This document shows, piece after piece, positions 12,125-36,726 of a stretch of DNA of 64,000 nt. The notes beneath the pieces are model-generated. The model had not been told where the DNA came from. It ran no database searches and saw only the letters and a list, made by a program, of their open reading frames with translations. The DNA comes from Opitutales bacterium (lineage in GTDB: Bacteria > Verrucomicrobiota > Verrucomicrobiia > Opitutales > T3Sed10-336): the NCBI GenBank assembly GCA_022565335.1, contig JAIUMY010000003.1, positions 1,861 through 65,860 of the forward strand, read 5' to 3'. Numbering within the stretch: position 1 is the first letter of the stretch; every line of letters starts with the position of its first letter. A program made the translations under genes and the position numbers.

Positions 12125-12397
12125 TCAGCGGATTTCAAAACCGCGAAACCCCTTCATTTGTTCCATGGATTTTTTCTCGGTCCGCTGAATATACCCTTCC
12201 ATTTCGGTTTCGATCGCCTGGACAAATTCTTCCACTTCTTTGGGAGAACCCTCCACCTGAAGTTCCACCCGGCCATCGGTAAGATTGCGAACCCAACCGC
12301 ACACCTCAAACCCCTGGGCGATTTGTCGAACGGTGTAGCGAAAACCCACCCCTTGGACCCGTCCCTCAAAAAAAACTTCCCAATGAACTGAACTCAT
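12125..12397 (-). CDS. acyP: Acylphosphatase
   Basis: The 90-aa protein carries the GRVQGVGFRYTV phosphate-binding loop and the GWVRNLTDGRVELQVEG motif. It overlaps fabF by 4 nt. Confidence 0.85.
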   Translation of the reverse strand: MSSVHWEVFFEGRVQGVGFRYTVRQIAQGFEVCGWVRNLTDGRVELQVEGSPKEVEEFVQAIETEMEGYIQRTEKKSMEQMKGFRGFEIR

Positions 12398-13650
12398 GGT
12401 TTATAGCGGGCCACCACCAAACTGGCATTATGCCCGCCGAATCCGAGATTGTTGCTCATCGCAATCTCCACCGGTGCCGAAACTTTCTGATTGGGAACAT
12501 AGTCCAAATCCAATTCGTCCTCCGGTTCCTCGTAGTTGATGGTCGGGGCGATTTCTCCGGTTTCGATGGCTTTTAAACAAACGATCGCCTCCACGCCTCC
12601 GGCGGCTCCCAAGAGATGGCCAGTCATCGATTTGGTCGAACTCATTTTGAGGCGGTAGGCATGATCGCCGAAGGTATCCTTGACGGCCTTGGTCTCGACC
12701 CGGTCATTAAAAGGTGTCGAGGTGCCGTGCGCGTTGATGTAGTCAACCTGCTCCCGTTCCAGGCCACCGTTTTTCAACGCTTTCTTCATGCACAGGGACA
12801 ATCCCGCCCCACTGGTTTCCGGGGCGGTCACATGATAAGCATCGCAGGTGGCGGCATAACCTTTGATTTCGCCGAGGATATTGGCCCCCCGGGCCAAAGC
12901 GTGCTCAAGGGTTTCCAAGACCACAATACCGGCCCCTTCTCCCATAATAAAACCGTCCCGCCCCCGATCAAAGGGACGGCTCGCCCGTTGCGGCTCATCG
13001 TTACGGGTGCTCATGGCTTTCATGGAACAAAAACCGGCATACCCCAAAGGGGTGATCGCTGCTTCACTGCCTCCGGCAATCATTACCTGGGCCTCCCCGC
13101 TGCGAATAATACGAAGGGATTCACCAATGGCATGGGTGGCGGTCGCACAGGCGCTGACCACGGCAAAATTAGGGCCCTTCATGCCAAACTCTATGGCGAC
13201 CAAACCACTGGCAATGTTGGCGATTAGAGAAGGGATCATAAACGGCGAAACCCGTCTTGGTCCGCGTTCGTGCAAGACCCGGCTCTGGTTTTCAATGGTC
13301 CACATCCCCCCGATTCCGGAACCGACCAACACCCCGACCTCACCGGGATCCTCGGCAGTCATATCCAGCCCCGCCGAGGCCACCGCTTTCTTACTCGCGG
13401 CCAAGGCAAAATGGGCATACCGGTCACTGCGGCGGGCCTCCTTCGGGTCCATCCACTCCTCCGCTTTAAAGTCCTTGCATTCGGCCCCGATGCGACAGGC
13501 AAATTTTTCCGTATCAAAGGAATCAACCGTGGAAATCCCACTCTCTCCGGCCAATAGGCGATTATAAAACTCATCAACTTCATTGCCGAGGGAGGAAACC
13601 ACCCCCATACCGGTTACGACAACGCGTTGCGAAAAATTGGAAGACGACAT
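12394..13650 (-). CDS. fabF: 3-oxoacyl-[acyl-carrier-protein] synthase II
   Basis: The KAS II catalytic triad context is visible: VVSACATATHAIG (Cys), INAHGTSTPFND (His) and SMTGHLLGAAGG (His). The C-terminal NNLGFGGHNASLV is also present. Confidence 0.95.
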   Translation of the reverse strand: MSSSNFSQRVVVTGMGVVSSLGNEVDEFYNRLLAGESGISTVDSFDTEKFACRIGAECKDFKAEEWMDPKEARRSDRYAHFALAASKKAVASAGLDMTAEDPGEVGVLVGSGIGGMWTIENQSRVLHERGPRRVSPFMIPSLIANIASGLVAIEFGMKGPNFAVVSACATATHAIGESLRIIRSGEAQVMIAGGSEAAITPLGYAGFCSMKAMSTRNDEPQRASRPFDRGRDGFIMGEGAGIVVLETLEHALARGANILGEIKGYAATCDAYHVTAPETSGAGLSLCMKKALKNGGLEREQVDYINAHGTSTPFNDRVETKAVKDTFGDHAYRLKMSSTKSMTGHLLGAAGGVEAIVCLKAIETGEIAPTINYEEPEDELDLDYVPNQKVSAPVEIAMSNNLGFGGHNASLVVARYKP

Positions 13651-13847
13651 AGGATCAAAAAACTCTGGGATTTATGTTTCAGGGAAATGGGTTTTAACAA
13701 AGTAAGCCTCCTTTAATAAAGGGATTTCGGAGCAAAGAAAATCTTTTTTTAAAAAGGAAAGACAAAGAAGCCTTCTTTCGCAATGGAATTGCGCGCATTA
13801 GCGAAACACCTACCCTCCGGCACTCGCTCTGCGAGGCATTTTCCGGG

Positions 13848-13882
13848 GGGGGTAGCCGTGGGGTTCACCCACGGCTACCCTC
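13848..13882. other. Strong isolated hairpin (13-bp perfect stem, 5-nt loop)
   Basis: gGGTAGCCGTGGG-gttca-CCCACGGCTACCc: positions 13850-13862 pair perfectly with 13868-13880. No U-tract follows on either strand. The stem starts with GTAG, as REP elements do. Confidence 0.7.
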
Positions 13883-13970
13883 ACATCATTCCTACGGGAC
13901 TACAAAACAGCCAATGAAATCATAAATCAATAAGCCCGTAATCCGGTCCTCGTCCTGCAAGCGCGTAACC

Positions 13971-13990
13971 GGTGGCCGCAGGTGGCCGCA
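13971..13990. repeat. Perfect tandem 10-mer (ggtggccgca x2)
   Basis: Read directly from the sequence: ggtggccgca occupies 13971-13980 and is repeated at 13981-13990. Confidence 0.9.
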
Positions 13991-14028
13991 GTAACGTGCG
14001 ACGAAGGGTTTTCGAGGTCTCAGGAGTG

Positions 14029-14236
14029 TTGCGCGCAGGGACATGAAGTCCCCGCTCGCGGTTGAGAAGGGGCGACTATTTCCGTTTTCCGAAGCATTGC
14101 GCACAGGGGCACAAGGCCCCCGTTCGCTGTTTACAAGGGAGGACACGGGTTCGTTTGCTCATGTTCGCCAACCGGTAGGCACAAGGCCACCGTTCGCTGT
14201 TTGCACAAGGGAGGGGGGCTCGTGTCGTTGGCTGTT
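14029..14236. repeat. Three diverged tandem copies of a ~68-70-nt unit in non-coding DNA
   Basis: The units start at about 14029, 14097 and 14167. The core ggcacaaggcccccgttcgctgtttacaagggagg (14108-14142) recurs as ggcacaaggccaccgttcgctgtttgcacaagggagg (14178-14214). The first 35 nt of units A and B match at 27 of 35 positions by hand alignment. Confidence 0.75.
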
Positions 14237-14662
14237 ACCCCAAGCGGGGACCCTGTGCGGAGTTCTTCAAGCCAGGGACGCGTGCCGACCACCTCCTCCG
14301 CGCGGGGACCCCCGATACGCTTCGCTCATTTCCCTTCGGCGGGATTTCGCGAGCTCAATTTGTGGGGCTGCGCGGAACACTCCGATCTCGTATGTCTCTC
14401 CCCGCCTACTCCAGCTTCGCTGGTGGTGTCCCCCGACCTGAAAAATATGCCGGTTCCCGATAAGGGGTTATTTTTTGCGCAAGAAAAAACAGTATTCGCT
14501 CGGAATGCGGGCACTTAATCTGTCAGAATATTTCGCTTTCGAGAAATTTCCTTGGCTCAAAAGCCTTTTTTCCTTTTCACAAAGCCTAAGAAATGAAATT
14601 TTAAGCTTTTTGCCGAAAACCCACTTTATTGATTTCCTTACCCTTTCCCCTTCTTTTATTTC

Positions 14663-15400
14663 ATGCCTGCCAAAAACGAAACCCTGATTGAAGCCATTGA
14701 TGTTGAAAGAGCCTATCCGACCGGAAAGACCGTGGTTTATGCGCTCAAGAAAATCAATTTAAGTGTCTACGCGGGCGAATACATCTCCTTGATGGGTCCC
14801 TCGGGTTCCGGGAAAACGACCTTTTTCAATATGATTGGCGCCCTCGATTTGCCCACCAAGGGGACCATTCGGCTGGGCAACCGGAACCTGCAGGACTTGG
14901 CGCCCGCCGAGTTGGCCTCCCTGCGTTGCGCCAACATCGGCTACATTTTTCAAAATTATAATCTGATTGAGGTGGTTTCGGCTTTGCAGAATGTGGTTCT
15001 GCCAATGCGTTTTCTGGGCCTCACCGAACAGGAGGCCCGGGAAAAGGCCGCCGGGTTGCTCGAAATGGTCGGCTTGGGCGAACGTATGCATCACCTTCCC
15101 GGCGAACTTTCCGGCGGACAGCAACAACGGGTGGCCATTGCCCGCGCCCTCGCCAACGACCCCGACCTCATCCTGGCCGACGAACCCACCGGCAACCTGG
15201 ATTCCAAAACCGCCGTCTCCATTGTCGAACTTTTGAGCAAGCTCAGTGTCGATCGTGGGGTCACCGTAGTTTCTGCTACTCACGACGCCCGCATGTTGAA
15301 TGTTTCCGACCGGGTGGTTTACCTCCGCGACGGTGAGGTCGAGAAGATCGTCAAACGTGAAGACCTGAACATTTCCATCGGCTCCATCGCCGAACACTAA
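14663..15400 (+). CDS. MacB/LolD-type ABC ATPase (first of two in locus)
   Basis: Walker A is GPSGSGKTT, the signature is [14 protein letters not shown], Walker B is [11 protein letters not shown], and the H-loop is ATHD. The 245-aa size is typical of partners of FtsX-type permeases. Confidence 0.9.
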
Positions 15401-15444
15401 ACCCCGACCTATTTTGCTTCTTTTTTCCATACGCACCTGCTGAC

Positions 15445-18354
15445 ATGAGTATTTCCCGCGCCGTAACCATTCTGATCGGATTAGTCCTAATTGTGATCCT
15501 CGCGCCCTTGTCCCAGTTTATGACCATGATGACGGTCAACGCGGACATTGAAACGGCCACTCCGGTGGGTTGGGCTATCGGGATCATCTTCACGCTGTTG
15601 CTGGCGTGGGCCTTTATCCGCTCCATGGCCAAAGTGCAGGCTATTCCGCGACAGAATCTGGTCATCCTTTTCGTCATGCTGACCATCGCCGCACCGGTGA
15701 TGAATCTCGGCTTGGTCCGGACTTTTTACAATGCCAACTCGGCCGCTCTGGATGAGTATTTCTTCCAGGGCAATCCGACCTACCGGACGATTTTTGACAG
15801 CATGAGCGACAGCTGGTTTCCCAAGGTTCCCACCGATGAGGGACTGGCATGGAACCGGGCGGATCGGTTTTTACGGTTTCTAACCGATAATGAGATTATC
15901 CGCGACAGCGACCAGGCCCGGCGCTCCCTGGTCGGGGCCTTGGAAACGGTGGAAGCGGAACTGGTTCGTCGTCAGCGTTTGGAGGAATTGGAAGAACTTC
16001 CCCCGGTAGAATCCATCGGCGACGAGACTTTGGCCGAACTGGTGGAGATAGAGTCCCTGAGTGAACGAATCCCTTACCTGCTTTTTGATGATGCCCGGCG
16101 ACTGCTGGACGATGATTCAGCCGGAATTTTCCCGCACCTTGGTTTGGCGGAAGAGATCGAGGCGCAACAAGAACAACGGGAGGCACGAAGCGAGGAAATC
16201 ACTCCCTTGCTTATAACCGAGCTGTCGGATTATGACGAATTTCTCCTCACCATGGTGGAGGAGTTTCAATTCACCATGGACCCCGCTATGGTGCTGCGGG
16301 TGGATGAGGAATTGAACCGTCTACCCGAGGAAGAAAGAGAGCTTCGCCAGCGGATTGCCGAACAGGAAATCGCCCCGCGTTGGCAGGAATGGCAGGCCCA
16401 GGTCTCGGTGCTTACCGAGGTTGACCGAAGAGAGGTCCGCAATGGTTTGATGGAAGCTTATTTATCGCAGCAAGCCGAACTCTCACGGGCTGAGCGGGAT
16501 GAGATGCTCTCCGGTTTTGCCTTTCGTCTCAGCCGGAGCGAGCGGCGGAGCCTGATTCGCCAAGACGGTTCGGATGAGCCCAATCAAAATATATTTGCCT
16601 TCCGCAACGGGCTCTGGGATGATTCCTCCAGTCGGCAGATGCGGGACCAGGAAAGTTTTTGGAGCAACATGGCTTCGGCCCGCGAGCGAATCCCCTGGGG
16701 ACTCTGGGTTAAACCGATGTTCAACTGGGGTATGCTGTTCCTGGCCATCTTTTTGTTCATGATGTGCCTCGCCGAATATTTCCGGCGAAAATGGGTGGAG
16801 CGGGAAAACCTGGCCTTCCCCTTGGTCGAGATCGCCGACGGGCTGATCCGACACGATTACAAACTGGAAACCGCCGACGATGTTCGGGAACCGGAAAAGC
16901 GGGGCGTTCTCTTTGACCGATTCTTTATTTTTGGCGCCTTTCTCGGGTTTTTAATCCTCTCATTGGAAGCCATCAACCACTATGGCTTGGTCGGTAATGA
17001 TATGCGCATCGTTTTCGATGCCAGCGGGACCCTGTTTACCAGCGGTATATTATCGGAAATTGACAAGGTGGTCTTTGTCTTTTCCCCCATTGTCATCGGC
17101 ATCGCCTTCTTGATCAGTCTTGAGTTGAGCTTTTCCATCTGGATGATCTTTTTCATCTATACCCTGCTGAGCTGGATCATGCGGCTCATGGCCGACGGAG
17201 CCTTCAATACCGGGCTCTACACCGGCTGGGCCGGAGGATCGAACTACCCCTATCCGATGGAGCAATTGCTCGGTGCAGTCGTCTGTTTTACTCTCTTCCT
17301 CCTGATAAAATCCTGGAAAACGAAAAGCCGTCCCAACACCGGAGAAGTCCCGGATCAGTACGTCCCTCCCCGCCTGACCATGGCCGGACTGATTGTTTTA
17401 CCGATTTTCATTTTCATCATGATCTGGAACATCGGGGTCAATAGTCCGTTCGTCATTCTTCTGTTTGGCCTTCTGGTTATGGCGATCACCATCGCGGCGG
17501 CCCGGGTCCGGGCGGAAACGGGTCTCCCCACCCATCATGTTACCTACGATTTCACCAAAATGCCGATGGTCCTCGGCCTAACCAGTGGGATGGGGGCCAA
17601 AAACTACGCCGCGTTCCTGAACATTGTGTTCCTTCCCTGGACCCTGATCTTCCGCAGTTTGCCCCAACAATTGGAAAATATCGAGCTGGCCCGGCGCTAT
17701 AAGTTGCGTTACAGCGTGGTTGCCGTAGCCTCCCTCCTGGCCTTCGTGGTGGCTATCGGCGCCGGTTTATTCAGTTTCCTGATGTTGTCCCACTACTTCG
17801 GCGATGGGATGCAGGGAGCCTCTCTGCGTGAAGGCGCGGCGACCATCAACAATGTCAATATGGCCAAATATCCCCTGTGGGTTGGCCACTTCCAGGGAGA
17901 AGGTTCCCTTGAGATGCACAACACGTTCTCCGGCGTCCATGTCTTTTTCATGGTCGTGGGCTTTGTCGTCATCCTGGCCTTGACCCTCCTGCGGAAATAT
18001 TTCCTCAGCTTTCCCCTGCACCCAATTGGCTATCTGGTCCTCCTTTTCAGCCTCTACTACCACTGGATATCGCCCTACCACAAGGGGGAAGGTTTCACGA
18101 ATGAAGCCTCGCTGGTCTGGGGTGGCGTACTGGTGGCCTGGGGCTTCAAAAAACTGATTATCAAATACGGTGGGATGAATTCCTACAAAGCCGCCAAACC
18201 CTTCTTTATCGGCCTGGTGATCGGGTCCGTCTTCTGTGTCTTCTGCTGGAACATGCTCGATCTACTGGCCATGCTCATGGACCAAAGTGGTTCGGACGCC
18301 AACTTCATCGAACCTTTCCAAAACCACCAATTGTTCAGCCCCCGCTTTTACTAA
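15445..18354 (+). CDS. 969-aa polytopic membrane protein, OPT-superfamily-like, with ~325-aa acidic coiled-coil insertion
   Basis: About 3 N-terminal TM helices are followed by an E/D/R-rich soluble segment (aa ~95-420, e.g. RRQRLEELEELPPVESIGDETLAELVEIESL) and then >10 TM helices. The motif ENLAFPLVEIADGLI and the C-terminal KKLIIKYGG..AKPFFIGLVIG parallel KLPFPLAPIAAEGAI and RKFGKERW..PILAVGFAAG in the 686-aa protein. Confidence 0.6.
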   Translation: MSISRAVTILIGLVLIVILAPLSQFMTMMTVNADIETATPVGWAIGIIFTLLLAWAFIRSMAKVQAIPRQNLVILFVMLTIAAPVMNLGLVRTFYNANSAALDEYFFQGNPTYRTIFDSMSDSWFPKVPTDEGLAWNRADRFLRFLTDNEIIRDSDQARRSLVGALETVEAELVRRQRLEELEELPPVESIGDETLAELVEIESLSERIPYLLFDDARRLLDDDSAGIFPHLGLAEEIEAQQEQREARSEEITPLLITELSDYDEFLLTMVEEFQFTMDPAMVLRVDEELNRLPEEERELRQRIAEQEIAPRWQEWQAQVSVLTEVDRREVRNGLMEAYLSQQAELSRAERDEMLSGFAFRLSRSERRSLIRQDGSDEPNQNIFAFRNGLWDDSSSRQMRDQESFWSNMASARERIPWGLWVKPMFNWGMLFLAIFLFMMCLAEYFRRKWVERENLAFPLVEIADGLIRHDYKLETADDVREPEKRGVLFDRFFIFGAFLGFLILSLEAINHYGLVGNDMRIVFDASGTLFTSGILSEIDKVVFVFSPIVIGIAFLISLELSFSIWMIFFIYTLLSWIMRLMADGAFNTGLYTGWAGGSNYPYPMEQLLGAVVCFTLFLLIKSWKTKSRPNTGEVPDQYVPPRLTMAGLIVLPIFIFIMIWNIGVNSPFVILLFGLLVMAITIAAARVRAETGLPTHHVTYDFTKMPMVLGLTSGMGAKNYAAFLNIVFLPWTLIFRSLPQQLENIELARRYKLRYSVVAVASLLAFVVAIGAGLFSFLMLSHYFGDGMQGASLREGAATINNVNMAKYPLWVGHFQGEGSLEMHNTFSGVHVFFMVVGFVVILALTLLRKYFLSFPLHPIGYLVLLFSLYYHWISPYHKGEGFTNEASLVWGGVLVAWGFKKLIIKYGGMNSYKAAKPFFIGLVIGSVFCVFCWNMLDLLAMLMDQSGSDANFIEPFQNHQLFSPRFY

Positions 18355-18357
18355 GCC

Positions 18358-21300
18358 ATGTCCTTTTCTTTTTCCCGCTTCCTCCCTTCCCTGACCCGCC
18401 AAGCCTTTTTGGTGGCCTTGCTCACCGGGACCGGACTGTCCGCCCCGGGACTCCTCGCCGACCAGAATGCGGACTTCGTCGAGCGACTTTCCCCGGAACG
18501 ACAGAACCAACTTCTCAGCTTCGACCTGTTCGAAAATGCCTCCCTGCGCGAAATCGCCGCGCGTACCCAGGAAGAAACCCTTCGCCCGCTGATCGAGGAA
18601 ATTCTCAGCGTGGACAGCCTCTCGATAGGGGTCCGCGAGGTTGACGAAAATGATCGGGCCGAAATCCATCATCTTCTTCTCGACCACTTGAACAAACTCG
18701 AGCCTTACGGGGTCGAATACGTCGGCTCGCTCACCGGGATTGCCGCCGTTCCGGTTTCGGTGGACCGGCGCCTTGACCCCGACGAGCGCGAAGCCCCCTC
18801 GGCGTTGACCATTGGCGAGGAACAAATCACCGTCCACCCCCTCTGGCCCAACGGTCCGATGCCCAGTCTTGCCCCCAAAGAGGGAATCACCGGAAAACTC
18901 GTCGACATTGGCTCCGGCCGCTGGAGTGATCTGAATGGAAAAGACCTGCGGGGCAATATCGCGGTAATGTCCTTCCGGGGCGGGAACAATTTCGAACGGG
19001 CCTTCTACCTCGGAGCCCGCGCCATCCTGATCGTCGAGGACAATAACGTGGATATGGAAAACGCTGAACGGCTTTTCCGTCACACTCCCCTTCCCTACCC
19101 GCGCTTTTATCTACCCCGCGCCGAGGGCCAGGCATTGTTGGAGCAAATCAACCAATCCGAAAATCCCATCGAAGCAACCCTGAACGGAGGGCAAGTCATT
19201 GAAAACCGGCCCATCGAATCGATCTTCGCCTTTCTCCCCCCCGACGAGGAAAGAACTCTGGAAGTCGGCGAAGATACTCACCTTCGTCTCATTGCCGACC
19301 AATTCGGAGTCTCCACACGGGATCTTCTGCGAGCCAACGATAAGACCTCCCCAAACGTTACCGAGGGAGACGAAATTATCATTCCCGGCCGCACTGATAT
19401 TTTCACCATTCCCGAAGGAGACCTTATCAGTCGTCTGGCGAATCGCTACGGCACGACCCCCGACGATTTCCGGGAGGCCAATGATTGGGACGAGGGTCAA
19501 ACGTTGCAGCCCGGAGACTCCTATCTCGTTCCCAACCGCGAAGACCCCTTCGTTATCACCGTCAATATCGATACCGTCTCGGTGGTTCCCGACCTGCCCC
19601 ACGGTGCCCACCAAGCGAAAAATATCGCTTTTGCCCTGAATACCATGGAACACCTGGCGACCAGTGAAAACAGCTGGCGGCGCCGGGGCATTCTCTTTGC
19701 CTTCATGGACGGCGATACGCAGGGGGGCATCGCCAGCCGGAAGTTGGCGGAGCACTATCAACTCTACCACAATCGTCTGCGTACCGCACACGGCGAAGAT
19801 CTGGCCGCGGAAATCGAAAATTATGAGGGGGCCATGGCCTTCTTCGATCCGGATCGTTCCATACAGGATATGGACCGCGAATATGCCATGTGGTTTGCTA
19901 ATGATTGGATCGTTCCGCGCCTCGAGGATGTCCGTATTGACATTGGGGAAAAACGGGTCGCCCTCATTAACGAACTGCTGGAAATGCCCGATCCGGATCC
20001 GGGACCAGGGGAAATTCGCCATCCGGACCTGGAGAAAATGTCCCCTGCGGAAATCGAAGCACTCCGCGAAGAGCGCCGCGAACTGCGACAGCGTCAGGCT
20101 TATCAGGAAAATCGTCGGGACCGGTTACAGGAACTGCGTTTACAAACAATTGAGCAACGACGCCTGAGTTTCCAAGACCGTCTGGAAAGTTTCCATGATA
20201 TCATTACGGAGAACCCGGACACCAATTTCCCGGACCGGATAGCTGATGCGATGAAGGGTGAATCCTTTGCCGCTCTTTTCGGGGAAACAGATATGACCTT
20301 CGAGTCTCTGAAGGAGCGTTTCCTGGTGGAGATGGAGGAAGAGAAGGAGGCCCAAGCCTACCTGCTGAACAACTTGGATTTGGCCGAAAAGCTCTATCCC
20401 ATCCTGCATCCCGCGGACGAAGAAGACCCCCGTTTGGGATGGTTCCTCGACTTATCCAGCGACAGCCGCACCATCGGCCTCCCAGCTCTGGACAGTTCGG
20501 ATTTCCGGGGCCGGCTCCCCGGTGACGGCGCAAATCATGGACGGGATTTGGAAAACTCCTTCCAGTACGCTCTCTCTCTCGGCCACATCCGCGCGGGTTG
20601 GGAAGAACAATGGAGCTTTTACCGCCGGGAGGATTCCCTGGACTTCCCCGTTCTCCCTGCCCGCCAAGCCCCCATCTATGGAGATTTCTGGGCCGCCCTC
20701 CGAGTCGGTGTTCTCCCTATGGGGAATTTTAATGACCGCCTGTCCCGCTTGGACACCCCGCACGACACCCTCGAAAATATCAATTTTGAGAACTTTTCCA
20801 TTGTCGCGCGGAATGCCCTTTTCCTGATGCAACTCGGGGCGGAAAGCCCTACCGACTCCAGCGGTCCCTCCCGCATGAGCCGCCCGCGCTTTACCCGCAT
20901 CGGGGGACAGACCGTGGAGGCCAGCATCCGCTCCGCCCTCGACGCCGAAGACCCGGTGGGAGGAACCATCGTCCATTATCCGGGAATCCGCACCCAGGAA
21001 GAGCGCAACAACCACAACACCAACGCCTATCGTGGAACCCGTAGAAGTTTTCAACGGGTCAGTATGCTCAACGGACGATACCGCGTCCCCTTGGAAAACA
21101 TCGGTTTTTCCAACATGATGAACCATATTTATGCCTATCATCTGAACCGGGATCGGGCTATTTTTGATAAAATTGCCACCCAAGGTCTTTTGGGTGCCGC
21201 CACCGAAGCCCAGACACCCGCTTTCCAGATGATCGAAGGCCGCGAGGCGGAGAAAAAAATCATTCTGGTGGATGTCGCCCCTCTGGTCTTTTTTGCGGGC

Positions 21301-24039
21301 AGCGAACCGCATGATTATCAAATTTTAGGAAGTGGAAACCACGACCTCCGGGTTCTTGAAGCGGTCACTCGAGGCAACCCGCGGGAATATGCGCTGGAAA
21401 ACCCGGTGCGCCATTTTGCCGAACTCGAAACCCTCGGCAACATTATCTACATGAACGAAGGGGGCCGAGCTTCCATCCTGTACCAGCGAACCGGCCAGAA
21501 TATGTTTATGCTGGTCGGGCGTTTGGTCGAAGACGAGCGCTTTGGCGGCACCCGTCGGGGGGAAGGTATTCGGATTGGCCCCACCGATGACGGAGAGGAG
21601 AATACTTTTTACCCCTTTACCGCCATGCGCGTCGCCGAACAGATGCTGGACTTGGCCATTGACCGGCAGGACACCTATGCGGACTTCGGGATTCGGTCCC
21701 AATCGATCGCCCGCGCCATCGCCCGCAGCCAGGAAAAATTAAATGAGGCCTATGCCTTCTACGAAGAAAAAGAATGGCAAAAGGCCGAAGGCGCAGCCCG
21801 GGAGTCCTGGGGGATGCTGGTCAAATTCTACCCCCGCATCCTCGGACTGGGCCGCGAGGCGGTTTTCTCTGTTATCATGATCATGGCGATCCTGTTGCCA
21901 GCTTCCTATTTTCTCGAAAAACTTCTCATTGGCAGCAAAGCCATCATCGCCCAGATTTTTGGCACCAGTACCCTCTTCGCCCTGGGGACGGTCTTTTTAT
22001 GGCTGTTCCATCCGGCCTTCTCCATCGCCGTATCGCCCTTTATTGTGGTGATTTCTTTTACCATGATCCTGATGTCGATCATCGTGTTGACCATCTGTTA
22101 TCAGCGATTCGAGACCCTGGTGCGTCGGGCCCGAATTGCCGGCGGTGAGGTCGAAGGCGAGGAGATCAGTTTGGTGAGTTCTCTGGGCACCGCCCTTTCC
22201 ATGGGGGTTTCCAATCTGAAAAAACGCCCTTCCCGGACGTTCCTCACCTCCCTTACGGTAACCGTTCTAACCTTCTCCATTGTCGCCTTCGTCTCGGTGA
22301 CCGGCGAAGAAACCGTCTCCGAGCGTTCCGTTTCGCTCGACCACAATGTCGAAGGACGCACCATTGAAGCCATGGAGCCAGCCTTTGAGGGCATGCTCTT
22401 TCGGAGTTTCAACTGGCAATCGCTCACCTCCTCCTTCGTCGATGCTGTTGAAACGGAATTCGGTTCCCATCTCCCCACTACCACCCGCGCCTGGTACATT
22501 GAGCGGGAAGGAGGCAATAATGCCGCCGTTGAGGGAGCGAACCAAGTGGAAATACGCTTGGGTGACCGCCAGCACATTTCCACGGGTATCATGGTCTTCG
22601 AACCCAACGAAACCGAATTCAGTGGCCTGCACCGGGCCGTATCCAACGCCGAATGGTTCCGGCCCGCCCAATGGGAAGAAGGCATCGCCCCGGATCGTAA
22701 TGTCATCATCCTCCCCGACAACGCCGCCCAGCGCCTGGGAATTACCGAAGAGCACATTTTCGACGAAAACGGTCAACGCCGTCCCGTCGGGGAATTGCCC
22801 TCGGTTATCATGCAAAACCAGCAATGGTCGGTCATCGGCATTCTTGACGTGGAAAAAGCCAATCGTATCCGCGATGTGAACGGCCGCAGCCTTGCCATGG
22901 TGGACTACGTCCGCTCCAACATGACCGGTAATGCCCCCGGCGAACTGATCAACGAAGATCCGGTTTCCTACCACTTTGACTGGGAACGTCTGGTTATCGT
23001 TCCCATGGCCGCGCGCACCGATGTCAACGCCCGCCTGCGCTCAGTGGTCGTACAGTTCCAGGAAGATACCGATGTCGAACAGATCTACCATGATGTAGCC
23101 CTTCGTTTGAACCGACCCTTCTTCGCTCATCACGATGAAAATCTAAGCTTCATTACCACCCGTACCCAACGTGACATCGGAGGCATCGCCAAAATCATCG
23201 TTCCCATCATTCTCTGCGTGCTCATTGTTCTCAACACCATGATGGGCACCGTGGACGAACGTCGAGGGGAGGTAGGTATGCTCGGCGCGGTCGGTCTATC
23301 GCCGAAACAGATATCCTTCCTTCTCCTCTCGGAATCGGCGGTGTACTCGGTCATCGGCATTCTCTTCGGGATGTTCATAGGCCTTCTCTTTGCCAACAGT
23401 ATTCCCTTCTTCAATGAAGTTCTGGGGGTCGCCTTCCTCAGCGAGTTGTCCTTCAACTTCACTTCGGTGATTTCCATGGGATTGGCCCTGGGAACCGGCG
23501 TGATCGTTATGATCGCCACCCTGATCCCCGCCAAACGGGCCGCCACTCTGGCCGCTCCGAGCGGGATGTCCAACTGGGAATTGCCGGAGCCTGCAGACGA
23601 TAAGAACATTTACTTTGAACTGCCCTTCACCCTCACCCGGGGCAATGCAGTGGGGATGTCCGCCTTTTTCCGGCAGTTTCTGCTCAATCATACCGACGCC
23701 AGTTCGGAAGACTTCACCTGCCGCGATATTCGTCTGGAAAACCGGGTGACCGAAGAGGGGGGGCCTGCCCTGCGCATTGAATCCTCGATGTGGCTGAGTC
23801 CCTACGACCTTGACGTGGCCCAGCACTTTATCATGGATATCGTTCCCACCAAGAACCCCGGAGTTTACGCGGTGGAATTGATTCTGGAGCGTACCTCGGG
23901 TGCCGAGGATGCTTGGATCCGCATCAATTACCGCTTTTTGAACAATGTCCGACACCAATTCCTGCTTTGGCGGAACCTTTCCCCTGAAGAGCGCAACAAC
24001 TTCATCAAACGCGGTGCTGAACTGCTGCAAGACGACTGA
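18358..24039 (+). CDS. 1893-aa fusion protein: signal peptide, PA-like domain, 2x LysM, degenerate M28-like module, coiled coil, unknown ~470-aa region, TM cluster, FtsX/MacB-type permease module, ~165-aa C-terminal domain
   Basis: The gene is a single uninterrupted ORF that starts 3 nt after the previous stop. The PA-like segment is GKLVDIGSGRWSDLNGKDLRGNIAVMSFRGGNNFERAFYLGARAILIVED. The FtsX TM1 context is SNLKKRPSRTFLTSLTVTVLTFSIVAF. The FtsX core is VLNTMMGTVDERRGEVGMLGAVGLSPKQISFLLLSESAVYSVIGILFGMFIGL. Confidence 0.8.
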   Translation: MSFSFSRFLPSLTRQAFLVALLTGTGLSAPGLLADQNADFVERLSPERQNQLLSFDLFENASLREIAARTQEETLRPLIEEILSVDSLSIGVREVDENDRAEIHHLLLDHLNKLEPYGVEYVGSLTGIAAVPVSVDRRLDPDEREAPSALTIGEEQITVHPLWPNGPMPSLAPKEGITGKLVDIGSGRWSDLNGKDLRGNIAVMSFRGGNNFERAFYLGARAILIVEDNNVDMENAERLFRHTPLPYPRFYLPRAEGQALLEQINQSENPIEATLNGGQVIENRPIESIFAFLPPDEERTLEVGEDTHLRLIADQFGVSTRDLLRANDKTSPNVTEGDEIIIPGRTDIFTIPEGDLISRLANRYGTTPDDFREANDWDEGQTLQPGDSYLVPNREDPFVITVNIDTVSVVPDLPHGAHQAKNIAFALNTMEHLATSENSWRRRGILFAFMDGDTQGGIASRKLAEHYQLYHNRLRTAHGEDLAAEIENYEGAMAFFDPDRSIQDMDREYAMWFANDWIVPRLEDVRIDIGEKRVALINELLEMPDPDPGPGEIRHPDLEKMSPAEIEALREERRELRQRQAYQENRRDRLQELRLQTIEQRRLSFQDRLESFHDIITENPDTNFPDRIADAMKGESFAALFGETDMTFESLKERFLVEMEEEKEAQAYLLNNLDLAEKLYPILHPADEEDPRLGWFLDLSSDSRTIGLPALDSSDFRGRLPGDGANHGRDLENSFQYALSLGHIRAGWEEQWSFYRREDSLDFPVLPARQAPIYGDFWAALRVGVLPMGNFNDRLSRLDTPHDTLENINFENFSIVARNALFLMQLGAESPTDSSGPSRMSRPRFTRIGGQTVEASIRSALDAEDPVGGTIVHYPGIRTQEERNNHNTNAYRGTRRSFQRVSMLNGRYRVPLENIGFSNMMNHIYAYHLNRDRAIFDKIATQGLLGAATEAQTPAFQMIEGREAEKKIILVDVAPLVFFAGSEPHDYQILGSGNHDLRVLEAVTRGNPREYALENPVRHFAELETLGNIIYMNEGGRASILYQRTGQNMFMLVGRLVEDERFGGTRRGEGIRIGPTDDGEENTFYPFTAMRVAEQMLDLAIDRQDTYADFGIRSQSIARAIARSQEKLNEAYAFYEEKEWQKAEGAARESWGMLVKFYPRILGLGREAVFSVIMIMAILLPASYFLEKLLIGSKAIIAQIFGTSTLFALGTVFLWLFHPAFSIAVSPFIVVISFTMILMSIIVLTICYQRFETLVRRARIAGGEVEGEEISLVSSLGTALSMGVSNLKKRPSRTFLTSLTVTVLTFSIVAFVSVTGEETVSERSVSLDHNVEGRTIEAMEPAFEGMLFRSFNWQSLTSSFVDAVETEFGSHLPTTTRAWYIEREGGNNAAVEGANQVEIRLGDRQHISTGIMVFEPNETEFSGLHRAVSNAEWFRPAQWEEGIAPDRNVIILPDNAAQRLGITEEHIFDENGQRRPVGELPSVIMQNQQWSVIGILDVEKANRIRDVNGRSLAMVDYVRSNMTGNAPGELINEDPVSYHFDWERLVIVPMAARTDVNARLRSVVVQFQEDTDVEQIYHDVALRLNRPFFAHHDENLSFITTRTQRDIGGIAKIIVPIILCVLIVLNTMMGTVDERRGEVGMLGAVGLSPKQISFLLLSESAVYSVIGILFGMFIGLLFANSIPFFNEVLGVAFLSELSFNFTSVISMGLALGTGVIVMIATLIPAKRAATLAAPSGMSNWELPEPADDKNIYFELPFTLTRGNAVGMSAFFRQFLLNHTDASSEDFTCRDIRLENRVTEEGGPALRIESSMWLSPYDLDVAQHFIMDIVPTKNPGVYAVELILERTSGAEDAWIRINYRFLNNVRHQFLLWRNLSPEERNNFIKRGAELLQDD
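19258..19533 (+). other. Two consecutive LysM-like (peptidoglycan-binding) modules inside the 1893-aa ORF
   Basis: The first module, aa ~301-343, reads LEVGEDTHLRLIADQFGVSTRDLLRANDKTSPNVTEGDEIIIP. The second, aa ~348-392, reads FTIPEGDLISRLANRYGTTPDDFREANDWDEGQTLQPGDSYLVP. Both fit the LysM pattern x-V-x-x-GD-T/L-x-x-IA-x-x-y-g-x(4-6)-l-x-x-N-x(6-10)-G-x-x-l-x-iP. Confidence 0.7.
23173..23538 (+). other. FtsX-family 3-TM core (TM2-TM4) of the 1893-aa protein
   Basis: This segment covers aa ~1606-1727. Its helix-loop pattern and the E-R-x-x-E-v-G-x-L-x-A-x-G motif match FtsX-domain permeases. It is preceded by a ~290-aa extracytoplasmic segment between TM1 and TM2, as in MacB/LolC. Confidence 0.75.
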
Positions 24040-24050
24040 TTTAGACCACC

Positions 24051-26111
24051 ATGGCTGACCAATCTCCACCTCCTGAAGCTCCCAAAAAGACAGGGATCGA
24101 GAACGAAGAGTTCTTTGATGCCAAGTTCTCCATTGAGGCCATCCAGAACGAGCCGTATGAAGACGGCTTCACCTGGCGGACCATTGTCGGAGCGTTTTTC
24201 ATTTCCTTCGTCATGTTGCCGGGCCTCATCTTCATGGGCTTGATGATCGGCTACGACATGGGGACCGCCGCCGAGTGGGTGACCATCATCCTCTTTGTCG
24301 AAGTCGCCCGCCGCTCCTTCCTGACCCTGCGTAAACAGGAGCTGTATATGCTCAAATACACCGCTGGTCAGCTCACCCACATGGCGGGGGGGATATCCAT
24401 CGGAGGGGGGATTTTCGGGATGCTGGTCTATTTCCGCTACCTGCGGAACTCCGATGCTTTTCACACCTTCGGCATTGCCCACCAAGTTCCGGATTGGGTC
24501 GCGCCATACGGCGATGCCGCCTACAATGTTTTCACCCATCCGGTCTGGTATCCGGCGATTATCGTCACTATCGCCTCCATGACCCTTTCCAAGCTCACTC
24601 AGTTGAGTTTGGGCTTCCTGGCCTACAAAGCCACCGCCGATGTGGAGAAACTTCCCTTCCCGCTCGCGCCGATTGCCGCGGAAGGGGCTATCGCCCTGGC
24701 CGAAACCAGTCAGGACAAAAACAAACGGGGCTACCGCCAATACTGCTTCTCCCTGGGAGCGATCATCGGCGCGGTATTCGGGATCATTTACGTCGGGGTG
24801 CCCACCTTGAGTAATGCCTTCCTCGACCAGACCCTGACCATTATTCCGATCCCCTTCCTGGATTTAACGACCACCATGGAACGGTATCTGCCGACGGCCC
24901 CAATCGGGATTACTTTGAATCTGGGATTGATCTTCTTCGGCTTCGTGCTGCCCTGGCGGGTCTGTATGGGCATGGTCGCCAGTACCTTTCTGTTCCAGCT
25001 TATTCTGAATCCTTTTGTCTTCTACCCGCTAGGCTGGCTCCCCACCTGGACCCCCGGCAAATCGGCCATTCAAACGAACGTTTCCAACGCCCTCGACCTC
25101 TACCTCTCCATGGGGATCGGGATCGCCTTTGCCATTCTCTGCGTTGGCCTCTACGGCATGGGCAAATCCTGGATGAAGTACCGGAACAATAAGGATCAGG
25201 ATGAGGACGGCTTTGATATTAAGGCCTTCTGGCGTCAGGACAAACCCCGGGGAGACGTCAAAACCTGGCTGGCCATTGGCGTCTATTCAGGCGTTTCGCT
25301 TATTTACGTCATTTTCTGTAACTACCTCGTCAACGGCAACCTCCCTCCCGATGTGGAACCCTTCCCCATTTACTGGTTGGTTCTCTTTGCCTACGTCTGG
25401 ACCCCGATGAACACCTACATCAACGCCCGGATGTCCGGTATTGCCGGTCAGCACGCCGGGATTCCCTTCGTCACCGAGGGTGCCATCTTCGCCTCCCAGC
25501 ACCGCGGCGTGGCCATCTGGTTCGCCCCGCTGCCCATTGCCAACTATGGTAAGTTTGCCGACGAGCTCCGGGAAACCCAGCTGACCCGGACGAAGTTCAC
25601 CTCGATCCTCAAAGCGGAACTATTGGCCTTCCCCTTGTTGATCATCGCCTCCTTTATCTTCTGGAGCTATATCGTCACCCTTGGCGATATTCCCTCCGAC
25701 CGCTATCCCTTCGTGGAACAATTCTGGCCGCAGTATGCCACCATGCAGGGGGTCTGGGCTTCCTCCATGCAGGAGGGGCAGACCCTCCTCTTCCAGTCGT
25801 TGAAACTGGAAGTCATTATCACTAGCTTCATCGGATCCATTGGGCTCTTCAGCGGCTTCAGCGCAGCGGGACTGAGCCACCAGTATATCTACGGAGGCAT
25901 TACCACGGTCACCCAATTGCCCCACATGGCGATTTTGATTTTCGTCGGCGCCCTTCTCGGCCGCTTCTTCTTCATGCGGAAGTTCGGCAAGGAACGCTGG
26001 ACCAATTACACCCCTATTCTGGCCGTCGGCTTCGCCGCCGGAATGGGGCTCACGGGGATGCTTAGCATCGCCATAAACTTCCTCTGGGCCTCCATCGGGG
26101 CCTCCTTCTAA
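24051..26111 (+). CDS. 686-aa polytopic membrane protein, OPT-superfamily-like (paralogue of the 969-aa protein)
   Basis: It has about 14-16 predicted TM helices. FTWRTIVGAFFISFVMLPGLIFMGLMIG, KLPFPLAPIAAEGAIALAE and the C-terminal G-rich helices resemble oligopeptide-transporter (OPT) family hallmarks as I recall them. Confidence 0.55.
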   Translation: MADQSPPPEAPKKTGIENEEFFDAKFSIEAIQNEPYEDGFTWRTIVGAFFISFVMLPGLIFMGLMIGYDMGTAAEWVTIILFVEVARRSFLTLRKQELYMLKYTAGQLTHMAGGISIGGGIFGMLVYFRYLRNSDAFHTFGIAHQVPDWVAPYGDAAYNVFTHPVWYPAIIVTIASMTLSKLTQLSLGFLAYKATADVEKLPFPLAPIAAEGAIALAETSQDKNKRGYRQYCFSLGAIIGAVFGIIYVGVPTLSNAFLDQTLTIIPIPFLDLTTTMERYLPTAPIGITLNLGLIFFGFVLPWRVCMGMVASTFLFQLILNPFVFYPLGWLPTWTPGKSAIQTNVSNALDLYLSMGIGIAFAILCVGLYGMGKSWMKYRNNKDQDEDGFDIKAFWRQDKPRGDVKTWLAIGVYSGVSLIYVIFCNYLVNGNLPPDVEPFPIYWLVLFAYVWTPMNTYINARMSGIAGQHAGIPFVTEGAIFASQHRGVAIWFAPLPIANYGKFADELRETQLTRTKFTSILKAELLAFPLLIIASFIFWSYIVTLGDIPSDRYPFVEQFWPQYATMQGVWASSMQEGQTLLFQSLKLEVIITSFIGSIGLFSGFSAAGLSHQYIYGGITTVTQLPHMAILIFVGALLGRFFFMRKFGKERWTNYTPILAVGFAAGMGLTGMLSIAINFLWASIGASF

Positions 26112-26135
26112 GCTTCCTAATTTCCCTTTTTACCC

Positions 26136-26723
26136 ATGGCCCACAAAGAATGGCATATTGATCGTCTGAAGATGAAACCCGGCCTGGTTTGGCAGATGGC
26201 CGTGAACAGCCTGAAAGTCCGGATCAGCCGGACCACGCTGACGCTCCTCACCATCGCCACCTCCAGCGCCTTCCTCATCTACCTACTCACCCTCCCCCGG
26301 TCCGATGATCTGGCCGATCAGCAAACCTGGTATCTGATGCTCGGCCTTTCCGTTTTGGTAAGTGCTGCCGGGGTCTTGAATACCATGCTTATGTCGGTCA
26401 GTCAGCGCTACCGCGAAATCGGCACCATGAAGTGCCTTGGGGCCCTCGATAAGTTTGTCCTTTTTACCGTGATGGTCGAATCGGCCATCCTCGGCTTTGT
26501 CGGTGCGGTCATCGGGGTTATTGTCGGGTTGACCATCTCCATCTTGCTCGGCCTGCTGGAATACGGCTTTAGCCTCTTTCAATACCTCCAATTCGACTGG
26601 ATTCTGCTGAAAATCCTTGCCGCCTTCGCGCTGGGTATCTTTTTAACCACCTTCGGCTCTTCCATCCCTGCGGTTATCGCTTCCCGCATGCCGCCGATGG
26701 ACGCCATGAGAGGAGAAAAATAA
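26136..26723 (+). CDS. Minimal (195 aa) FtsX-family permease lacking an extracytoplasmic domain
   Basis: TM1 (TLTLLTIATSSAFLIYLLTL) is separated from TM2 by only ~11 aa (PRSDDLADQQT). The FtsX core motif is LNTMLMSVSQRYREIGTMKCLGALDKFVLFTVMVESAILGFVGAVIGVIVG. A TAATG overlap links it to the next ATPase. Confidence 0.75.
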   Translation: MAHKEWHIDRLKMKPGLVWQMAVNSLKVRISRTTLTLLTIATSSAFLIYLLTLPRSDDLADQQTWYLMLGLSVLVSAAGVLNTMLMSVSQRYREIGTMKCLGALDKFVLFTVMVESAILGFVGAVIGVIVGLTISILLGLLEYGFSLFQYLQFDWILLKILAAFALGIFLTTFGSSIPAVIASRMPPMDAMRGEK

Positions 26724-36166: not shown

Positions 36167-36628
36167 GGCTTGGCCTTATGGATTTTCATCAAATTACCTT
36201 CCAGATGAACACCGAGAGAAGCCAACCATAGCTCTTTAAGTGGAGAAAGCGGCAAGCCTCTTGCCACTTTCTCCAGCCGCAGCCTGCGGCGGCGTTATCA
36301 GCCCTGGGGTTCGGTCCCGTTTTGACCGGACCTTCACCACCGACGGCGCTCCACAAGTGGAGGCCCTACAATCACCCTCCAAATCAATTCGGCCGAAACT
36401 TCCTGTAGGGCTCGCGCTTGCGCGATGCCGTCGCGGAGGGGATCATCGAAACGTACAGATGAGGAACGCCTTTCCCGACCACCAACGCCAACTTTCGGCC
36501 GACAGGCCGCGACCTCAGTCCAAGGACGGCTCCGCCGTCGAATGGAAAACGGATTTCCCCTCAATCGGATCCAATTCTTCAACTGCGGCGTTTAGGTCCA
36601 TGACTTGCGGAACAAGAGCCTCCTCATC

Positions 36629-36663: not shown

Positions 36664-36726
36664 GAATGAAATTCTAAGCGAAATTTCCCTCGCAAAACCG
36701 TTTTCTCACCCTGTAGTATTTTTCTC

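Follow-up and report, generated by a model that had tools for sequence, protein, structure and literature searches.

A probable REP/BIME-like palindromic repeat island in the conserved spacer between fabF and an ABC operon of an uncultured Opitutales bacterium

In enterobacteria and pseudomonads, REP and BIME elements occur in extragenic DNA as short imperfect palindromes, GC-rich and 20 to 40 nt long, in clusters of alternating orientation, at gene 3' ends or within operons. RAYT genes encode Y1 transposases, are short (~500 bp) and are flanked by REPs or REPINs (PMC3337134); REPINs and more complex REP arrangements have both been described (PMC3337134). Here we analyze an intergenic spacer of an uncultured Opitutales bacterium (Verrucomicrobiota) whose core contains a GC-rich palindromic unit. 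The unit is likewise a short imperfect palindrome and recurs in clusters of alternating orientation, both here and in a sister species. It differs in its setting, between divergent promoters. The copies of classic REP/BIME elements are also many, scattered over tens to hundreds of loci in a genome, whereas the present unit occupies a single locus in the sequence covered (64 kb plus ~270 kb), which counts against the explanation that we prefer. On balance, the spacer core is probably a locus-specific REP/BIME-like palindromic repeat island within a conserved divergent control region. The spacer is an ordinary kind of bacterial spacer and not a demonstrable new large RNA.

The spacer is gene-free, measures ~1 kb and separates fabF from the divergent ABC/DUF6785/FtsX-LysM operon in a 64-kb stretch of DNA, which we call the window. 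The locus is arranged as follows:

12394-13650, minus strand, fabF (Pfam ketoacyl-synt)
13651-14662, the spacer
14663-15400, plus strand, ABC ATPase gene, the first gene to the right of the spacer
15445-18354, DUF6785/DUF6784 gene of the plus-side operon, after the ABC ATPase gene
18358-24039, gene for an FtsX/LysM protein of 1893 aa, after the DUF6785/DUF6784 gene

The NCBI protein accessions of fabF, the ABC ATPase and DUF6785 are consecutive (MCH8473805/6/7); therefore, the depositor annotated no protein between fabF and the ABC gene. Every feature listed in an initial annotation of this DNA was found where it had been placed, including the AT-rich ends (GC, 0.33 to 0.42) and the GC-rich core (0.52 to 0.66, with 0.535 for the whole window). 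That annotation had seen no credible ORF in the spacer, and we agree: the longest ORF (132 aa) had no Pfam match and no relative among 1.84e9 representative proteins searched with phmmer.

Does the spacer contain a known RNA? The Rfam scan proposed in the initial annotation returned no match in the entire window at the gathering thresholds of Rfam 15, and at E ≤ 10 the interval from 13500 to 14800 gave four matches (E of 0.57 to 9), all far under the gathering score. ARAGORN found no tRNA or tmRNA gene in the window. No intrinsic terminator, defined as a GC-rich stem of 5 bp or more with a U-run after it, was present between 13400 and 14900 (2.7 expected in shuffles), and we found no promoter-like or terminator-like site on the plus strand of the spacer. 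BLASTN with the spacer gave no plasmid or phage matches, the pattern of the repeat unit did not occur in viral contigs, and exact-pattern scans of metagenomes returned no matches either to the unit or to the best-conserved portion of the hairpin block described below.

One sister species (locus L084) shares the junction between fabF and the ABC operon, with amino acid identities of 98% for FabF and 92% for DUF6785 and a spacer of 744 nt. The middle of the spacer spans 428 nt here versus 159 nt in the sister. Divergence between the two is 8.7% in the left block, 16% in the right block and ~50% in the filler, and the remainder consists of indels; fourfold sites, which served as the neutral yardstick, differ by 32 to 41%. 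The repeat unit and the blocks at 13776-13937 and 14366-14550 are conserved 3 to 5 times better than fourfold sites. Short-read assemblies of the sister species break within the spacer, at hairpins.

More distant relatives have other arrangements: ruvX-fabF in L082, a membrane protein as the neighbor of fabF in L081, and, in L085 and L092, an ABC operon that comes after peptidase M3 at a distance of ~180 nt. These four loci lack both the junction and the spacer sequence, and neither BLASTN nor nhmmer detected spacer homology in 80 loci anchored on FabF, drawn from other Opitutales and others. Conservation in relatives had been proposed in the initial annotation as a test of a large RNA; here it extends to one sister species, and beyond that species its absence argues against such an RNA. 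Remnants of the ancestral neighbors (peptidase M3, ruvX, manC-like and membrane protein) were not found in the spacer by tblastn. We also considered and rejected a pseudogene, with negative results from tblastn with the relatives' proteins flanking fabF and the ABC operon, from phmmer of the 132-aa ORF and from Pfam.

The end of the spacer next to fabF and the adjoining hairpin block contain these features:

13651-13800, minus strand, AT-rich fabF-proximal control region (putative promoter/5'UTR; GC, 0.33 to 0.36)
13732-13749, minus-strand sequence AAAAAAGATTTTCTTTGC, an 18-nt box within the fabF-proximal region
13776-13937, plus strand, conserved hairpin block (85 to 97% identity to the sister in 40-nt bins)
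13780-13792, plus strand, S0, a stem of the hairpin block, kept in both species
13783-13917, plus strand, weak candidate ORF of 44 aa inside the hairpin block
13813-13820/13843-13850, plus strand, S1, a stem enclosing S2, kept in both species
13823-13835, plus strand, S2, inside S1, kept in both species
13850-13880, plus strand, S3, a perfect 13-bp hairpin, with its inner 7 bp kept in both species
13888-13900, plus strand, S4, a stem of the hairpin block

The fabF-proximal region is 90 to 97% identical to that of the sister, against a 32% difference at fourfold sites, and its 18-nt box recurs at an equal distance (~83 to 100 nt) upstream of fabF in L081, a locus with 81% identity in FabF. In the 64 kb, no other perfect hairpin is as long as the 13-bp S3, which had been singled out before, and a length of 13 bp was not reached in any of 30 dinucleotide shuffles of the entire window. 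The outer 6 bp of S3 are unpaired in the sister, where the left arm reads CCAAACATCC versus GGTAGCC here; the cluster of changes that separates the 13-bp hairpin from the 7-bp version of the sister is restricted to one arm. The 8-bp stem S1 is also present as annotated, with one U.G pair, and RNAalifold retains 7 of its pairs in both species. Both S1 and S4 contain U.G pairs or changes able to pair on the plus strand only. Two further candidates for this region were rejected: an upstream ORF of fabF with a perfect AAGGAGG (13712-13706, minus strand), whose motif and TTG start are both altered in the sister, and a recombination tract behind the low divergence of the left block, given third-position differences of 0.20 to 0.33 in the neighboring codons of fabF.

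On the other side, the region next to the ABC operon forms the right block:

14366-14662, plus strand, conserved region upstream of the ABC operon (83.8% identity to the sister)
14411-14423, hairpin
14454-14467, small hairpin with a 4-bp stem that includes two wobble pairs; a U-run comes next (14468-14476)
14467-14490, palindrome
14547-14587, 22-nt tandem repeat

In the sister, the small hairpin at 14454-14467 shows a change from C-G to U-A at 14456/14465 and from U.G to C-G at 14454/14467. The last ~110 nt, an ancestral and promoter-proximal stretch, weakly resemble the ~180-nt spacers found in L085 and L092 and are the sole part of the right block to do so.

What lies between these two conserved blocks? 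The core is a mosaic of one GC-rich imperfect palindrome of ~38 to 50 nt in both orientations. In this unit, a 12-bp stem interrupted by two conserved mismatches closes a loop of 5 nt; across 4 copies, 95% of the cells are paired. One sequence of the unit is TTGCGCRCAGGGGCACAAGGCCCCCGTTCGCTG, and we searched for copies with a covariance model of the unit (R1). Three direct copies (head-to-tail), one truncated inverted copy and one inverted half were present:

13938-14028, segment missing from the sister (a gap in both alignments)
14029-14066, plus strand, U1, direct unit (R1, 51.9 bits, E = 3.6e-12), with a 5' flank GGAGTGTT that begins at 14023
14097-14134, plus strand, U2, direct unit (R1, 60.8 bits)
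14165-14204, plus strand, U3, direct unit (R1, 45.5 bits), absent from the sister
14233-14276, minus strand, inverted unit truncated by ~9 nt, which pairs with U1 and U2 in long-range complements
14281-14360, unconstrained filler (47 to 50% identity to the sister in aligned columns)
14366-14386, minus strand, inverted half unit (5' half only), located at the start of the conserved right block

In the sister we count a single direct unit, a single inverted one and the half unit: 1+1.5 copies versus 3+1.5 here. Its lone direct unit is the orthologue of U2 (94% over 36 nt, sister positions 2203-2238), and U1 is absent from the sister in direct orientation. U1 and U2 differ by two compensatory pairs (2 of 10 pairs). 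In U3, the 5' arm has been replaced and the stem restored (CGGU-A-GGC/GCCACCG), as seen in the minimum-free-energy fold. The reverse complement of 14233-14276 can be aligned to the units as well as to the sister's complete inverted copy (2235-2272; R1, 28.2 bits, E = 8e-5), and that of 14366-14386 aligns with the 5' half of the unit in both species. The three ~69-nt tandem units described earlier were recovered by repeat search at 14040, 14108 and 14178 (spacing of 68 and 70; identities of 68%, 100% and 93%), by self-BLAST (72% over 119 nt, E = 5e-9) and by the covariance model (52, 61 and 45 bits); TRF did not call them. The perfect tandem 10-mer (GGTGGCCGCA, 13971-13991) was called by TRF as 2.1 copies with 100% matches. 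A CsrA/Rsm-type sponge was considered for ACAAGGGAGG, which occurs twice (14133-42 and 14205-14), and was rejected, both occurrences being in segments missing from the sister.

The long-range complements that had been read as nested RNA helices are present and are longer than first described:

14023-38/14368-83, 16 nt, 94%
14091-108/14251-68, 18 nt, 83%
14048-62/14237-51, 15 nt, 87%
14048-58/14299-309

Three inverted repeats map exactly onto pairs of direct and inverted units; in the outermost helix, 14023-38/14368-83, the inverted half unit partners the 5' half of U1. The appearance of nested long-range helices thus arises because copies of one unit lie in opposite orientations. A dispersed repeat or MITE was rejected as well: the 16-nt "terminal inverted repeats" at 14023-38/14368-83 are unit derived, and there are no other copies in the window. 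Searches of the 64 kb with the covariance model (filters off), self-BLAST and three pattern searches yielded no further unit, and neither did the covariance model in 25 related loci (~270 kb in all, of which ~25 kb come from the sister genome).

The folding energy of the spacer is only partly above background. A 681-nt fold had a z of -3.48 on the plus strand versus -1.53 on the minus strand, and the plus strand also folded more strongly in the sister (-4.18 versus -2.71). The z values of the 386-nt repeat domain (14010-14395) were -3.55 (plus) and -2.98 (minus), a similarity that is expected of DNA-level inverted repeats; the minimum-free-energy fold and the centroid of this domain nearly coincide. 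Among 300-nt windows, only 13650-14100 stood out, with a plus-strand z of -3.5 to -4.0 that placed it in the top ~1% of 426 background windows (13650-13949, -4.0 versus -2.1 on the minus strand). The repeat region was unremarkable at this window size (z of about -0.8), and some coding windows in the same genome reach -4.3. RNAalifold, run on two species only, reported five "compensatory" pairs, four of which lie in the filler of ~50% identity; one compensatory pair is in the helix between unit and inverted unit. The architectures predicted for the two species are very different.

These data bear on several alternatives to a palindromic repeat island. One of them, which we regard as rather unlikely, is a lineage-specific structured RNA from the plus strand, in the form of a long 5' leader to the ABC/DUF6785/FtsX-LysM operon or of an independent ncRNA of ~0.6 to 0.7 kb. 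It would run from ~13780 to the small hairpin and U-run at 14454-14476, with the conserved blocks as its core and the duplicated units as expansion segments. The higher plus-strand z in both species, the agreement of fold and centroid in the repeat domain, the conserved blocks far under neutral divergence and the C-G to U-A change in the 14454-14467 hairpin argue for such an RNA, and the plus-strand fold bias, the compensatory pairs and the G.U pairing that the unit stem, S1 and S4 allow on this strand only would fit its transcription equally well. However, it has no Rfam family and no plus-strand promoter- or terminator-like site (the stem that most resembles a terminator being the one of 4 bp), half of it is missing or unalignable in the sister, and its predicted architectures are strongly unlike in the two species. 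The inverted unit copies account for its long-range helices, coding windows of the same genome lie at equal or lower z, and a homologue in one sister species only yields no statistical covariation. Could the candidate 44-aa protein account for the conservation of the left block instead? Its frame is intact in the sister across 41 codons, an in-frame 3-nt indel included, and the simple substitutions affect codon positions 3, 1, 3, 1 and 3 and never position 2, a pattern that, with just five substitutions, is not significant. This protein is extremely improbable: its C terminus is frameshifted and 17 codons longer in the sister, the ORF has no Shine-Dalgarno sequence, no Pfam match and no place in the annotation, and the hairpins account for the same changes.

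It is quite unlikely that the unit belongs to a true REP/REPIN family, with many genomic copies and, to mobilize them, a Y1 transposase of RAYT type, for which the RAYT-like ORF at 50295-51320 would be a candidate. The match of this ORF to Y1_Tnp (PF01797, 38 bits) and to the NCBIfam model "REP-associated tyrosine transposase" (NF047646, 56 bits), together with the conserved mismatches of a short GC-rich palindrome and the adjacent direct and inverted copies of the sister, which resemble a REPIN doublet, is what such a family would predict. The NCBIfam score is nonetheless below the cutoff of 80, the ORF, at 341 aa, has about twice the usual RAYT length, no unit-like palindromes flank it, and the searches of the window, the 25 loci, metagenomes and viral contigs returned no copy beyond those of the spacer in the two species. 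Functionless debris, meaning that a gene or some other sequence was left to decay at a rearrangement junction and survives as the core, is very unlikely. The junction is clade specific, the filler evolves at about the random level and large indels separate the sister species, all of which suits debris; conservation 3 to 5 times better than that of fourfold sites does not, and neither do the negative tblastn searches for ancestral neighbors and the lack of any relative of the longest ORF. A combined scheme is unlikely: a clade-specific plus-strand RNA of ~0.6 to 0.7 kb, built from a duplicated and inverted hairpin module, would control the envelope-type ABC/DUF6785/FtsX-LysM operon that lies downstream, and the units could be substrates of the RAYT-like Y1 protein, making up a young, very-low-copy REP-type system of the Verrucomicrobiota.

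The initial annotation had left a choice between an undescribed large ncRNA or 5' leader and a decaying REP/minisatellite cluster. We favor a version of the latter, on account of the unit copies in both orientations and their variable number; the large RNA or leader is rather unlikely and a generic REP family quite unlikely. Under our preferred reading, the repeat island, the spacer would serve two divergently transcribed units as a common control region, and a rearrangement specific to a small Opitutales clade probably made their genes neighbors. Three kinds of sequence would coexist in it: selected ends with a ~160-nt hairpin block, the palindrome mosaic and unconstrained filler. The promoter-proximal ends and the hairpin block appear to be under purifying selection, and both promoters must lie in the conserved flanks. 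The mosaic probably expands and contracts fast, and we infer replication slippage for the tandem units and the 10-mer and intrastrand template switching for the perfected 13-bp palindrome and the inverted copies. If the core is transcribed, or if its DNA is negatively supercoiled between the promoters, the hairpins would be only generic structural elements, which might pause, insulate or stabilize. A point against this reading is that conservation far exceeds that of neutral sequence in the unit (94% between species), in the hairpin block and in the right block, which indicates that they hold something functional, as DNA or as RNA.

The spacer is mostly a cautionary example for ncRNA screens based on folding energy and the absence of ORFs: a few copies of one unit in both orientations suffice for a GC-rich, hairpin-dense locus with the look of nested helices, and one sister genome to compare it with is all that is needed to expose the repeat origin. 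It also illustrates that bacterial spacers can join strongly constrained control sequence with a repeat core of fast turnover. Dispersal of the unit and its linkage to the RAYT-like gene would extend REP/RAYT biology to the Verrucomicrobiota, and a discrete transcript would be a very young structured RNA; either would be a modest advance.

Among known systems, REPIN/RAYT (PMC3116915, PMC3337134) resembles this locus in the back-to-back direct and inverted units of the sister, which fold into a 20-bp hairpin, and in the distant Y1/RAYT-like protein encoded in the window; it differs in that the present locus has no copy population and in that the RAYT-like ORF, below the cutoff and of twice the usual length, lies 36 kb off and is not flanked by units. 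Large structured bacterial ncRNAs in Rfam, such as OLE, GOLLD, HEARO, ROOL and raiA, are like the spacer in size (0.4 to 0.7 kb), in a GC-rich predicted fold of many helices and in intergenic location. The spacer differs from these large ncRNAs in having no Rfam model match, repeat-derived helices without covariation support, and conservation limited to one sister, in which half of the sequence is replaced. CRISPR arrays share with it a period of 68 to 70 nt, a better-conserved hairpin of ~36 nt alternating with a less-conserved part of ~33 nt and one degenerate copy; a CRISPR array was rejected because its "spacers" would be interrelated (the self-alignment runs through them), the repeats are 68 to 93% identical with an indel, some copies are inverted, and the window has no cas genes or domains. 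Quasipalindrome correction and tandem duplication hotspots arise by template switching and slippage. At the present locus, where the direction of change is unpolarised without an outgroup and the mechanism is read from the pattern only, the likeness to quasipalindrome correction consists in the cluster of changes in one arm, from a 7-bp to a perfect 13-bp hairpin, with tandem duplications, perfect and diverged, adjacent to it.

The spacer between fabF (minus strand) and a six-gene operon (plus strand, 14663-27535) of an uncultured Opitutales bacterium (Verrucomicrobiota) is best described as a conserved divergent control region that contains a fast-evolving, locus-specific mosaic of one palindromic unit. 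It is the longest gene-free stretch noticed in the window, and its surroundings are as follows.

12394-13650, minus strand: FabF, identical to NCBI protein MCH8473805.1
13651-14662: spacer, 1012 nt
14663-15400, plus strand: ABC ATPase, first gene right of the spacer
15445-18354: DUF6785/DUF6784 protein, 969 aa, operon right of the spacer
18358-24039: FtsX/LysM protein, 1893 aa, same operon
rest of the operon: an unannotated 686-aa protein, FtsX (195 aa) and a second ABC ATPase (270 aa)

As the initial annotation had stated, the spacer lacks a credible ORF: the longest frame is 132 aa, lacks a Pfam match and has no relative in a set of 1.84 billion representative proteins. The depositor's accessions for fabF, the ABC ATPase and the DUF6785 protein are consecutive, which leaves no annotated protein between fabF and the ABC gene. 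Homologues of the DUF6785 protein are carried by metagenome-assembled genomes labelled Opitutales, Puniceicoccaceae and Phycisphaerae; the literature searched does not mention DUF6785. The Rfam scan proposed earlier returned nothing at gathering thresholds across the window and only noise for the spacer at E<=10. Neither tRNA nor tmRNA was found, and the spacer showed no plasmid or phage similarity.

What is the origin of this junction? To find relatives, FabF, the DUF6785 protein and the ABC ATPase were used as protein queries, and the encoding contigs were then retrieved. Opitutales and other Verrucomicrobiota supply the best FabF matches in species-representative genomes, at no more than 69%. 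One sister species, with two assemblies (GCA_020831535.1 and GCA_022565675.1), shares the junction; compared over 4,020 nt, its contigs L083 and L084 are 100% identical, and its FabF and DUF6785 protein are 98% and 92% identical in amino acids to those of the window. In a third lineage (FabF 93% identical in amino acids, fourfold sites 58-63% different), the sequence upstream of fabF is unalignable past ~60 nt, and the contigs end 116-145 nt upstream. Among other relatives' contigs, ruvX is followed by fabF in L082 (9333-11257), a membrane protein gene is divergent from fabF in L081 (1-2156), and peptidase M3 precedes the ABC/DUF6785 operon in L085 (1-2408) and L092 (923-3930), across a spacer of only ~180 nt. 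The order of the operon genes is kept in L083 and L085. Because the next relatives have other neighbors, the junction is a clade-specific rearrangement. Remnants of ancestral neighbor genes were sought in the spacer and none are left, and no spacer homologue was detectable beyond the two species.

To compare the two spacers (744 nt in the sister), we used as a neutral yardstick the fourfold-degenerate sites of the flanking genes, which are 32-41% different between the species.

13653-13937: left 285 nt, 8.7% different from the sister
14097-14132: one unit, 6% different
14241-14280: segment, about 13% different
14281-14360: filler, random level, ~50% identity
14366-14662: right 297 nt, 16% different
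remainder of the 428-nt center: counterpart absent in the sister, which has 159 nt there

Measured against this yardstick, the spacer ends and some internal pieces are under constraint, and the center turns over through insertions, deletions and duplications. A recent recombination tract behind the conserved left block was ruled out by the third-position divergence of 0.20 to 0.33 in the adjacent fabF codons.

All of the elements listed in the initial annotation are present at their coordinates: a 13-bp perfect hairpin (13850-13880), an 8-bp stem with one U.G pair (13813-20/13843-50), a perfect 10-mer tandem (13971-13991), three diverged units spaced 68 and 70 nt apart (self-BLAST, 72% over 119 nt, E=5e-9) and long-range complements, which proved longer than reported, at up to 16-18 nt. 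The hairpin is the longest perfect one in the 64 kb, and 13 bp was reached in no shuffle of the window. From the three window units and the sister's unit we built a covariance model, R1, which has a 12-bp stem with 10 pairs modelled, 95% of cells paired and both-sided changes in 2 pairs. R1 detects the three direct copies of the window. Its hits in the sister are a single direct copy and, next to it, an inverted one (2235-72, 28 bits, E=8e-5). Reverse-complement alignment revealed the inverted pieces in the window.

14029-66: direct copy U1
14097-134: direct copy U2
14165-204: direct copy U3
14233-14276: the sister's inverted copy minus ~9 nt
14366-86: inverted 5' half unit, in both species, opening the conserved right block
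14023-38/14368-83: inverted repeat, U1 5' half versus inverted half unit
14091-108/14251-68: inverted repeat, U2 5' half versus inverted copy
14048-62/14237-51: inverted repeat, U1 3' half versus inverted copy

The inverted repeats map exactly onto pairs of direct and inverted copies; the "nested long-range helices" are thus a by-product of a two-orientation repeat. With R1, no further copies were found in the 64 kb (filters off) or in another 25 loci, ~25 kb of the sister genome among them, and metagenome and viral collections scanned for exact patterns gave no match.

Could the spacer instead encode a clade-specific structured RNA on the plus strand? Folding is better on this strand in both species, and the 681-nt core has plus- and minus-strand z values of -3.5 and -1.5, respectively. 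However, the spacer's folding energy is only partly exceptional. Against a background of 426 windows of 300 nt across the window (mean z -0.27, sd 1.19), the one stretch to stand out is 13650-14100 (z of -3.5 to -4.0 on plus); values over the repeats are about -0.8, and several coding windows reach -4.3. The repeat domain as a whole (14010-14395) has a z of -3.55 on plus and -2.98 on minus, strands that are almost equal because one repeat is present in both orientations. Four substitutions whose pairing survives only as plus-strand G.U (in the 8-bp stem, in a stem at 13888-13900 and in the unit stem) favor an RNA, as do compensatory pairs among the paralogous units and, in the two-species alignment, a C-G to U-A switch in a 4-bp hairpin (14454-14467) followed by UUAUUUUUU. 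Yet a compensatory pattern among direct and inverted copies can equally come from concerted evolution of repeats. Two sequences are too few to test covariation; RNAalifold gives five "compensatory" pairs, of which four sit in unalignable filler. Moreover, the predicted architectures differ between the species, and no terminator-like site was found in the spacer region, nor a promoter-like one on the plus strand. The large structured RNA is thus not supported, whereas the repeat island, the other reading in the initial annotation, holds in a modified, locus-specific form.

Low folding energies also occur elsewhere in the window. Antisense to the coding part of the 1893-aa FtsX/LysM gene, 20701-21000 (minus strand) has a z of -4.28, as extreme as any in the spacer. 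The lowest value, -4.30, lies at 36001-36300 (plus). A second long gene-free spacer, of 560 nt (36167-36726) and flanked by an HtrA-like protease and an unannotated 979-aa ORF, has visible GC-rich hairpins, including a perfect 11-bp one at 36629-36656, and no Rfam match.

Signs of structure-driven mutation may be read in the spacer. In the sister, the 13-bp hairpin pairs only at its inner 7 bp; the changes are clustered in the left arm (GGTAGCC in the window versus CCAAACATCC in the sister), and the right arm is identical. Quasipalindrome correction, that is, intrastrand template switching, is expected to leave such a one-arm cluster. The difference is consistent with this process, in a direction unpolarised without an outgroup, and replication slippage may explain the perfect 10-mer tandem and the extra units. 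The sister's short-read assemblies break inside the spacer, at hairpins, and contig ends of independent short-read assemblies fall in it (L083, L090 and L091 at 1-30; starts of L086 to L088). In one assembly, two contigs share a 24-nt overlap that lies inside a 22-bp hairpin; the end of another contig is in the unit hairpin. At the contig-end hairpins, L084 and L090 differ by a single base (TTTCACTG versus TTTCCCTG).

A further point on the side of an RNA is the conserved hairpin block at 13776-13937, the strongest candidate for a functional element, whether as RNA or as DNA. Within it, a 44-aa ORF (13783-13917, plus) stays in frame over 41 codons in the sister despite a 3-nt indel; the substitutions fall at codon positions 3, 1, 3, 1 and 3, and the C terminus is frameshifted. 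The ORF has neither an RBS nor a Pfam match, and the five substitutions that might indicate coding are below significance. An 18-nt box at 13732-13749 (minus strand AAAAAAGATTTTCTTTGC) is exactly conserved at 788-805 of L081, where FabF is only 81% identical and the upstream neighbor differs; its distance from the fabF start codon downstream, ~83-100 nt, is also kept. This box is a candidate promoter or operator element of fabF.

A CRISPR reading of the 68- to 70-nt period fails on the related spacers, imperfect repeats, inverted copies and lack of cas genes. The center resembles REP/BIME elements in its short GC-rich imperfect palindromes, both orientations, linkers and variable copy number, and the direct and inverted units that lie back to back in the sister are similar to a REPIN doublet (REPIN definitions, PMC3337134 and PMC3116915). 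Membership in REP/BIME is not established because many-copy dispersal, tested in the sequence at hand, was not found. The window also encodes a 341-aa Y1-transposase-domain protein (50295-51320, minus; IS200-like Y1, PF01797, 38 bits) with a visible HFHF (HUH) motif, which scores 56 bits against the NCBIfam "REP-associated tyrosine transposase," below the cutoff of 80. Its flanks hold no palindromes like the spacer's unit, and, as differences from REPIN/RAYT systems, it is 341 aa long and lies 36 kb off. We consider it unlikely that the spacer encodes a plus-strand RNA specific to the clade or that Verrucomicrobiota have here a nascent REP/RAYT system; each would be of moderate interest. The palindromic mosaic belongs to a known type of intergenic repeat, and there is little new in the spacer.
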